Virus record (IMG/VR): IMGVR_UViG_2541047931_000002
Span: 1-31,884 of that record
Length of the DNA stretch: 31,884 nucleotides
From: a virus
Taxonomy: Duplodnaviria; Heunggongvirae; Uroviricota; Caudoviricetes
Strand: one strand, 5' to 3'
Of the stretch, positions 25,692 through 26,201 are shown piece by piece. Made by a program: the position numbers and the translations under genes. Under the pieces are notes generated by a model. That model made no database searches and was not told the DNA's origin. It was given only the letters and a program-made list of their open reading frames with translations. How positions within the stretch are numbered: position 1 is the first letter of the stretch; each line of letters starts with the position of its first letter.

Positions 25692-25719
25692 GAAAAAACA
25701 AAACCCGCCGAAGCGGGTT
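25692..25719 (-). terminator. Intrinsic terminator downstream of hok
   Basis: Minus-strand AACCCGC-UUCG-GCGGGUU followed by UUGUUUUUU. Confidence 0.5.
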
Positions 25720-25787
25720 AAGTGCGGGTGCGTTGAGGATGCCTGCCACATCAGAGGTGGCGAGGGATTTCTCCCTCGCCGGGTCTC

Positions 25788-25943
25788 TTACTCCTCAGGT
25801 TCGTAAGCTGTGAAGACAGCGACCTCCGTCTGGCCGGTTCGGATTCGTACCTCGCAGAGGTCTTTCCTCGTTACCAGTGCCGTCACTATGACGGTTAAAC
25901 AGATGACGATCAGGGCGATTAACATCGCCTTTTGCTGCTTCAT
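25788..25943 (-). CDS. hok: Hok/Gef-family type I toxin (HokD/RelF-like)
   Basis: Frame of ORF 25788..26000; start placed at ATG 25943 with AAGGAGA RBS, giving 51 aa MKQQKAMLIALIVICLTVIVTALVTRKDLCEVRIRTGQTEVAVFTAYEPEE (single TM helix plus conserved Cys). Confidence 0.85.
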   Translation of the reverse strand: MKQQKAMLIALIVICLTVIVTALVTRKDLCEVRIRTGQTEVAVFTAYEPEE

Positions 25944-26201
25944 AGCCTGCTTCTCCTTGCCTTTCGGCACGTAAGAGGCTAACCTAGATTTGCCGTTCAT
26001 AGATTGAGCCTCAGATTAATGTTAAGCGTCTTGCAGGACGCGTAATGTTAACTGGGGCTTTTCTCTATCTGCCTTTGGTGTTCATGCCTGAGACAGATAG
26101 CCTCAAGCACCCGCAGTCATTCTACTTAACTAAGATTTCCCCGCAAACCGTTTTTGTCCGGCACAGTAAATATCCAACTAAACCAATGGCGTTCGCTGTA
26201 T

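Follow-up and report, generated by a model that had tools for sequence, protein, structure and literature searches.

A complete hok/mok/sok cassette of the hokD/hokW subtype in the early-right region of a lambdoid Escherichia coli prophage

INTRODUCTION

The paradigm of the hok family is the plasmid-borne hok/mok/sok (parB) locus of R1. Its activation by 3' exonucleolytic processing, the RNase III cleavage of the duplex between Sok and the mRNA, and the killing of the cell by Hok at the membrane have all been shown experimentally (PMC9841398). The closest studied relative of the locus described here is hokW-mokW-sokW of the Stx2 phage 933W and the Sakai prophage Sp5 (933W/Sp5, AF125520), for which R1-type activation, cleavage and killing have been shown in part (PMC8621323). 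hokW is toxic and sokW counters this toxicity, partly via RNase III and Hfq (PMC8621323). The pair is a working type I toxin-antitoxin (TA) system, and protection is lost when the sokW -10 sequence is mutated. The primer for the promoter-less mutant, YO-421, swaps exactly the -10 hexamer (Takada et al., 2021, PMC8621323). The sokW RNA has been detected on northern blots with a probe over the promoter/tail region, and hokW-sokW hastens lysis and phage release upon induction. In Sp5 the hokW mRNA is already there before induction, and Hok appeared as the sokW RNA vanished (PMC8621323).

The chromosome of E. coli K-12 has its own members of the family. hokC (gef)-mokC-sokC has IS186 directly downstream. 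hokD (relF) is the third gene of relB-relE-hokD in the Qin cryptic prophage, and HokD is reported to be toxic when expressed (bioRxiv 10.1101/2025.08.07.668861).

This report concerns a hok locus in a stretch of viral DNA of 31,884 nucleotides (IMG/VR record IMGVR_UViG_2541047931_000002). The whole stretch is called the window and all positions refer to it. An initial annotation had described a Hok toxin with a mok-like leader, hairpins and a Sok-like promoter. Each of these features was found where it had been placed, and the evidence favours a fully equipped module. The family, its mechanism and the hokD/hokW subtype have already been described, and this is an ordinary complete copy. We conclude that positions 26146-25692 very probably hold a working hok/mok/sok type I TA module of the hokD/hokW subtype, with the R1-type mechanism.

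THE PROPHAGE AND THE TOXIN GENE

The DNA of the window is that of an E. coli prophage, and over 801 bp it matches at least 10 RefSeq chromosomes with 99.9% identity. The gene order is repressor/Cro, YdaT, replication protein, DUF977 pseudogene, a small open reading frame (ORF), hokD, a rem-like gene, DUF968, RusA, Q and tRNAs. The cassette sits in the early-right (nin) region of a lambdoid E. coli prophage. Elsewhere in the window are a match to STnc100 (132 bits, 21804-21993, minus strand), downstream of the Q antiterminator region, and two tRNAs (22693-22766 and 22870-22942, both minus strand) at the place where a near-identical RefSeq genome has tRNA-Ile and tRNA-Arg. DicF matches on the opposite strand (61 bits, 30825-30876, plus strand). 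Together, STnc100, the tRNAs and DicF make the prophage Qin/dicF-like.

The DNA upstream of the cassette has some features of its own. The DUF977 gene is broken (26552-26992, minus strand), which leaves a 78-aa N-terminal ORF (26756-26992), and the equivalent gene is a RefSeq pseudogene with an internal stop. In some related genomes IS200C is inserted between the DUF977 region and hokD. An AT-rich segment with a small membrane-protein gene had also been proposed here; positions 26200-26500 are 35-40% GC and contain a 59-aa ORF with two hydrophobic stretches by eye. The ORF (MKNALQFLFVAFWLF...EYWR, 26202-26381, minus strand) has a strong Shine-Dalgarno (SD) sequence, AGGAGG, 5 nt before its ATG, and occupies a 35-36% GC island between the DUF977 pseudogene and the hok promoter. 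It matches no Pfam, PHROG or NCBIfam family, its homologues are only hypothetical proteins of E. coli and Shigella, and it is unannotated in a 99.9%-identical RefSeq genome. It looks like a small moron gene, and no link between it and hok/sok was found.

The toxin gene itself is as follows.

25788-25943, minus strand: hok toxin gene, 51 aa, with the SD sequence AGGAG at 25957-25953

In the minus-strand reading of 26160-25690 the hok start codon is an internal ATG at 25943 and the stop codon is TAA. The product, MKQQKAMLIALIVICLTVIVTALVTRKDLCEVRIRTGQTEVAVFTAYEPEE, is a Hok/Gef-family protein of the expected size of about 50 aa. It scores 81.6 bits against Pfam HOK_GEF (PF01848, cut-off 22) and matches PHROG 251, 'MokW-like host killing' (E = 2.8e-33). 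All 51 of its 51 residues are shared with K-12 HokD, so the earlier suggestion of a close HokD/RelF look-alike was correct, and the RefSeq name of the gene is already hokD. The product is 82% identical to HokC and 43% identical to the Hok of R1, and it differs from HokW at the C-terminus (TAYEPEE in the window, VDYESEK in HokW). The NCBIfam Hok subfamily models match under their curated cut-offs (48.5 vs 73 bits), and family membership therefore stands on Pfam, Rfam and the identity to HokD.

A separate observation concerns RNA editing. TadA A-to-I editing has been stated for the hokC, hokD and hokE mRNAs, with a change from Tyr to Cys like that in hokB (bioRxiv 10.1101/2025.08.07.668861). The UACG motif for this reported editing occurs in the window hok, where the Tyr47 codon UAC is followed by G inside CUUACGAAC (25802-25805, minus strand).

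THE mok LEADER AND ITS READING FRAME

Upstream of hok is a second ATG with an SD sequence of its own.

25788-26000, minus strand: 70-codon mok leader ORF, which shares reading frame and stop codon with hok; mokW and mokC have an equal 19-codon in-frame extension
26009-26012, minus strand: mok SD sequence GAGG, 8 nt before the ATG at 26000

Reading of the ORF bears out the proposal of a mok-like in-frame ATG at 26000, 19 codons upstream of hok. From this ATG translation would reach the hok start and run through hok in the same frame. The GAGG is invariant in an alignment of 29 loci (A3, described below), and the mok SD sequence of R1 has a GAGG motif too (PMC9841398). The elements have the order and spacing of R1, with the mok and hok ATGs at +113 and +170 in the window and at +112 and +169 in an R1-type plasmid locus.

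The initial annotation had treated the shared frame as an oddity. It is not one. In the 933W record (AF125520) mokW and hokW share one stop codon and sokW is antisense, and MokC is likewise HokC plus 19 in-frame codons with a common stop, the same geometry as in the window. A survey of 66 hok loci, on contigs taken from one genome per species, makes the same point. The commonest arrangement, seen in 35 loci, is an in-frame upstream ATG at a distance of 57 or 60 nt from that of hok. In 16 loci the upstream ATG is in the +1 frame with 58-nt spacing, and in 5 it is in the +2 frame, where the stop of mok overlaps the start codon of hok. One locus has an ATG at 60 nt whose ORF ends before the hok start, and nine have no such upstream ATG, at least two of these (L009, L014) being K-12-like relE-hokD junctions. 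Thus 56 of the 57 loci with an upstream ATG have a leader ORF that reaches the hok ATG in one frame or another. The frame can differ even when Hok is identical, as between L007 (in frame) and L008 (+1). Since the frame differs between loci while the leader ORF nearly always reaches hok, a same-frame leader is normal for the Hok subfamily of the window. This fits the published view that it is mok translation, rather than the mok product, that counts.

The spacing is variable more widely. Among loci L006-L085 the two ATGs are 57, 58 or 56 nt apart and the frame switches accordingly; spacings of 56 or 59 nt make the stop codon of mok overlap that ATG (ATGA). For the R1 reference, the G176T and T315A mutants lead to a spacing of 58 nt, with mok and hok in different frames (PMC9841398), whereas in the R1-type plasmid locus used for comparison (L005) the upstream ATG is 57 nt away and in frame. 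A separate out-of-frame mok was also sought in the window and rejected. Although the -1 frame stays open through hok, it contains no ATG, GTG or TTG to start from.

THE hok mRNA AND ITS FOLDING SWITCH

The elements of the predicted transcript are listed here from 5' to 3'.

26119-26146, minus strand: hok mRNA promoter by position, -35 TTGCGG (26146-26141), 16-nt spacer, -10 TAGAAT (26124-26119)
25696-26112, minus strand: predicted full-length hok mRNA, about 417 nt, from the 5' end GGGUGCUUGAGG (start of the Rfam match) to the T-run of the terminator
26101-26112, minus strand: tac element, the 5' end GGGUGCUUGAGG, pairing with 25738-25726
26054-26058, minus strand: ucb, the mok anti-SD sequence GCCCC, pairing with the mok SD in the full-length RNA or with tac in the truncated RNA
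25975-25980, minus strand: dcb, AGCCUC, pairing with the mok SD region in the truncated mRNA fold
25759-25780, minus strand: 9-bp stem-loop 3' of the hok stop, presumed from its position to protect the 3' end of the hok mRNA once this is processed (truncated)
25726-25738, minus strand: fbi element CCUCAACGCACCC, complementary to tac
25692-25719, minus strand: rho-independent terminator of the hok mRNA, a 7-bp GC-rich stem followed by UUUUGUUUUUU (terminator scan 25719-25702, then the T-run)

One line of evidence for this transcript is the Rfam model RF01794 ('sok'). In a scan of the whole window it matches the hok strand at 26112-25938 with 110 bits (gathering score 59, model positions 1-157), and the -10 of the promoter ends 6 nt before the 5' end of the match. 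The promoter hexamers are the same in 933W, with a few spacer bases different, and the two loci are collinear from about 26158, upstream of the common TTGCGG/TAGAAT promoter, through the 3' untranslated region (UTR). Over 440 bp the nucleotide identity is about 92%.

The name of the Rfam model is misleading. RF01794 also matches K-12 hokC, 933W hokW and the R1-type plasmid locus, always on the hok strand, and the annotated sokC of K-12 is on the strand opposite the match. The model therefore describes the hok mRNA leader, of which Sok is the partial complement. The match to this 'sok antitoxin' ends at the hok AUG on the sense strand (26112-25938, minus strand, in the window; 654-502, minus strand, in L004). 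Automated annotation with RF01794 would place 'sok' on the wrong strand.

A search of the mRNA fold for fbi- and tac-like elements had been recommended, and both were found. The full-length RNA has a minimum free energy (MFE) of -170.7 kcal/mol (z = -6.6), and a 12-bp tac/fbi duplex with one bulge is present in both its MFE and centroid structures. In the predicted full-length fold tac/fbi pairing goes together with pairing of the mok SD GAGG to ucb. When the 3' end including fbi is removed, the predicted MFE structure changes to tac/ucb together with a hairpin between the mok SD and dcb, and the 38-nt dcb target hairpin has z = -3.3. The thermodynamic predictions thus give a closed state (ucb on the mok SD) and an open state (tac/ucb and mok SD/dcb), the same two states as in the R1 model, where ucb also sits on the mok SD (PMC9841398).

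The helices are also supported by comparison. The alignment A3 contains 29 loci from Escherichia, Kluyvera, Photorhabdus and Pantoea. Over the three helices tested, 93.6% of cells are paired, compared with 47-55% when the partners are slid, and six pairs have compensatory changes on both sides. One example is the tac/fbi pair 4/406, which is U-A in 21 loci, C-G in 7 and U-G in 1. tac and fbi therefore covary across genera, and duplex prediction gives matching variants in three subfamilies (GGGUGC/GCACCC, GGGCGC/GCGCCC and GGCGCUU/AAGCGCC). An observation that seems not to fit is that the Photorhabdus rows appear unpaired in the 3' half of tac/fbi. However, duplex prediction gives 12 perfect pairs for them, and the apparent mispairing arises because the bulged C is missing and the alignment is shifted by one column. 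Likeness to the known systems runs the same way. tac and fbi are identical in sequence in the window and 933W, both of which are in lambdoid prophages; tac of hokC is also identical and its fbi nearly so. R1 has tac/fbi, ucb/dcb, the sok promoter position and the post-stop stem-loop in common with the window.

At the 3' end, the initial annotation had reported a perfect 9-bp hairpin at 25759-25780, 8 nt after the stop. The hairpin stands and the distance does not, as it begins 7 nt past the TAA. It reads GGCGAGGGA-GAAA-TCCCTCGCC (25780-25759) and folds with -19.7 kcal/mol (z = -5.8 vs shuffles). The hairpin is kept across the 29 loci, where two of the nine pairs show compensatory changes. In R1, toxicity is lost when the last stem-loop of the truncated mRNA is weakened by mutation (PMC9841398), and by position the window hairpin would be the equivalent of that stem-loop. 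The terminator sequence is shared with K-12 hokD as far as the T-run and diverges beyond it; the 3' ends of the window and 933W loci are unrelated beyond fbi. On the other strand, opposite the hok 3' UTR and terminator, a near-identical RefSeq genome has an annotated 'hypothetical protein' of 65 aa, which corresponds to a 64-aa ORF in the window (25612-25806, plus strand). Lying over the structured hok 3' UTR, this ORF is probably a spurious call.

THE Sok ANTISENSE RNA

The candidate antisense gene starts between the mok and hok starts.

25957-25985, plus strand: sok promoter, -35 TTGCCT (25957-25962), 17-nt spacer, -10 TAACCT (25980-25985), from positional homology to 933W, R1 and hokC
25992-26062, plus strand: predicted antisense RNA Sok, about 71 nt, with coordinates transferred from sokW as annotated in AF125520

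The plus-strand sequence TTGCCT-17-TAACCT had been put forward as a promoter for a Sok-like RNA. The sequence is there, and the sok promoters of 933W and R1 are equivalently placed. It is a weak match to the consensus (7/12), which by itself is not above chance, and the support for the promoter is therefore its positional homology. Both hexamers are identical in 933W, and promoters in the equivalent position are TTGCGC-17-TATCCT in the R1-type locus and one with the -35 TTGACC in hokC. A generic sigma-70 scan of 25600-26500 reported no promoter. Both family promoters, those of hok and of sok, are weak consensus matches that fall under its thresholds, so this negative is uninformative either way.

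The predicted Sok starts 7 nt past TAACCT. It has a 14-nt single-stranded 5' tail (GCCGUUCAUAGAUU), a long hairpin and the 3' end GGGGCUUUU, and folds with -30 kcal/mol (z = -5.6). This architecture of tail, hairpin and U-tail matches sokW and the annotated sokC, although sokC is 59 nt long and its hairpin is 18 nt shorter than that of the window. The overlap with the mok start is 9 nt, equal to that between sokC and mokC. At the sequence level, then, the window has a predicted cis-encoded antisense Sok. Its three genes agree in length with those of 933W: 51 aa for Hok, 70 aa for the in-frame Mok and, as a prediction in the window, 71 nt for Sok.

THE TRUNCATED hokD OF K-12

What makes this locus look unusual at first sight is the comparison with K-12. 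The initial annotation had pointed out that relBE is absent, and this is confirmed: neither relB nor relE is present in the window, which has the leader and the AT-rich segment upstream instead of the relB-relE-hokD (relBEF) arrangement. The two loci are otherwise close. Besides encoding an identical Hok, K-12 hokD is near-identical in DNA sequence from 14 nt before the hok ATG to the terminator, and its downstream neighbours (a rem-like gene, DUF968/ydfU and Q) are those of the window. However, K-12 hokD has no hok promoter, tac, ucb, mok start, sok gene or sok -10, all of which the window has, and RF01794 does not match the K-12 hokD locus. The breakpoint of the homology falls at about 25958-25960, within the sok -35 hexamer, and what lies upstream of it in K-12 is relE sequence. 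It follows that K-12 hokD is the derived, truncated copy and that the window copy is complete.

Nor is the absence of relBE the oddity that it had been taken for, since the state without relBE is common. The leader is found over at least 80% of a 215-bp query in 4269 of 5426 complete E. coli genomes (about 79%), with a median of 2 and up to 9 places per genome (full or partial matches), whereas the K-12 relE-hokD junction is found in 1174 of the 5426. Using a truncated K-12 hokD as the 'reference' makes normal loci look odd by comparison. In all the RefSeq records inspected the mok ORF, the sok RNA and the regulatory leader are unannotated, and hokD is the only annotated element among the matches listed. 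A literature search for sokD, mokD and hokD was swamped by unrelated words and returned no useful paper.

MECHANISM AND ALTERNATIVE READINGS

By analogy with R1 and hokW-sokW, we infer the transcription starts, the 3' processing, the action of Sok, toxicity in context and the biological role. A weak promoter would give a stable mRNA of about 417 nt, kept inert by tac/fbi pairing and by the hold of ucb on the mok SD. Slow 3' trimming towards the 9-bp stem-loop would remove fbi. With fbi gone, tac would pair with ucb and the mok SD would pass to the dcb hairpin, leaving an RNA that can be translated and that Sok can bind. Ribosomes that begin at the ATG of mok (26000) would enter the hok start region and allow Hok synthesis, and, with mok in frame, a 70-aa extended Hok would be made too. 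The unstable Sok of about 71 nt, transcribed from near 25992 on the plus strand, would pair through its 5' tail across the mok start, block translation of mok and hence of hok, and trigger RNase III cleavage. If Sok transcription stopped or Sok decayed, upon loss of the element or induction of the prophage, Hok would appear in the inner membrane and the cell would be killed or lysed. The cassette may serve to retain the prophage, to aid lysis at induction or to exclude phages.

What if all the elements are there and the locus is nevertheless silent or harmless in vivo? There is some precedent for such an inactive relic. The chromosomal hokA, hokB and hokC loci were reported to show neither post-segregational killing nor activation by rifampicin, and it was suggested that they are inactive (Pedersen and Gerdes, 1999, cited from bioRxiv 10.1101/2025.08.07.668861). 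The poor consensus matches of the promoters point the same way, as does the neighbouring DUF977 gene, a pseudogene in a 99.9%-identical genome and so a sign of some decay in the prophage. Against this, the cassette has no IS insertion, frameshift or truncation and shows no damage to tac/fbi, ucb, dcb, either SD sequence, either promoter or the terminator. Compensatory changes maintain the helices across genera, the closest studied relative, hokW-sokW, is functional (PMC8621323), and the HokD peptide is toxic (bioRxiv 10.1101/2025.08.07.668861). We consider a relic unlikely.

A second possibility is that hok is mainly a passenger of the early-right (pR) transcript of the prophage, as in K-12 relBEF, and that the antisense RNA is of minor importance. 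hok does point the same way as the early-right operon with its replication, DUF968, RusA and Q genes, and K-12 hokD directly follows relE without a promoter or sok of its own. Nevertheless, this is a very improbable account of the window copy, which has its own conserved promoter, a 5' end given by the family model and the full fold-back apparatus. Such an apparatus makes sense only for a discrete transcript with a defined 5' end. Moreover, the hokW mRNA of Sp5 is found before induction, and Hok came up when the sokW RNA was gone (PMC8621323).

Finally, the idea that the 70-aa protein from the ATG at 26000 is the real product, with the 51-aa start a habit of annotation and mok no separate regulatory ORF, can be set aside almost entirely: although translation from 26000 must give an extended Hok and the in-frame arrangement is the commonest (35/66 loci), identical or near-identical Hok proteins occur with the upstream ATG at 58 or 56 nt (L008, L016-18, L021, L022), out of frame or with a stop overlapping the hok ATG, so that the extension shows no conservation at the protein level, an AGGAG of its own precedes the hok ATG, the Pfam domain begins only at residue 25 of the 70-aa ORF, and R1 needs translation only up to the hok start (PMC9841398).

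A VARIABLE Sok TAIL

The reading as a working hok/mok/sok module of the hokD/hokW subtype leaves one thread with some novelty, and it is the only one. Between the mok SD and the sok -10 (25986-26008, both strands) the bases are hypervariable among loci (L007-L030) that are otherwise 92-99% identical. The variable patch consists of the 12-26 nt directly after the mok SD. It spans mok codons 2-5, and on the other strand these bases make up the single-stranded Sok 5' tail and the surroundings of the Sok start. Copies that reside in the same genome all have different tails, as in the four of E. coli ECMA0423 and the three of S. flexneri SFBU1023. The tail of the window, GCCGUUCAUAGAUU, has no match among the others in a small sample (a subset of the 80 fetched loci plus 933W). 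For the 71-nt mok-start region of the window, 1022 E. coli records show an identity of at least 99%.

The tail also differs from that of sokW (GUUCAGCAUGGAUU), as do the first mok codons. Because the difference extends to several positions, results obtained with sokW are not transferable base for base. Another difference from hokW is location: hokW is near the right end of its phage genome, and the window copy has the replication genes on one side and DUF968/RusA/Q on the other.

Tail and target are the two strands of the same DNA, and one mutation therefore alters both. Perhaps the patch sets orthogonal specificity classes of Sok, with several hok/sok cassettes co-existing without cross-protection. 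This suggestion is a tentative one, and we stop somewhat short of favouring it.

IMPLICATIONS

The window locus could be used to ask whether variation in the Sok tail sets specificity. It is also a clean natural template for asking whether hokD-type cassettes of the nin region act like hokW-sokW at prophage induction.
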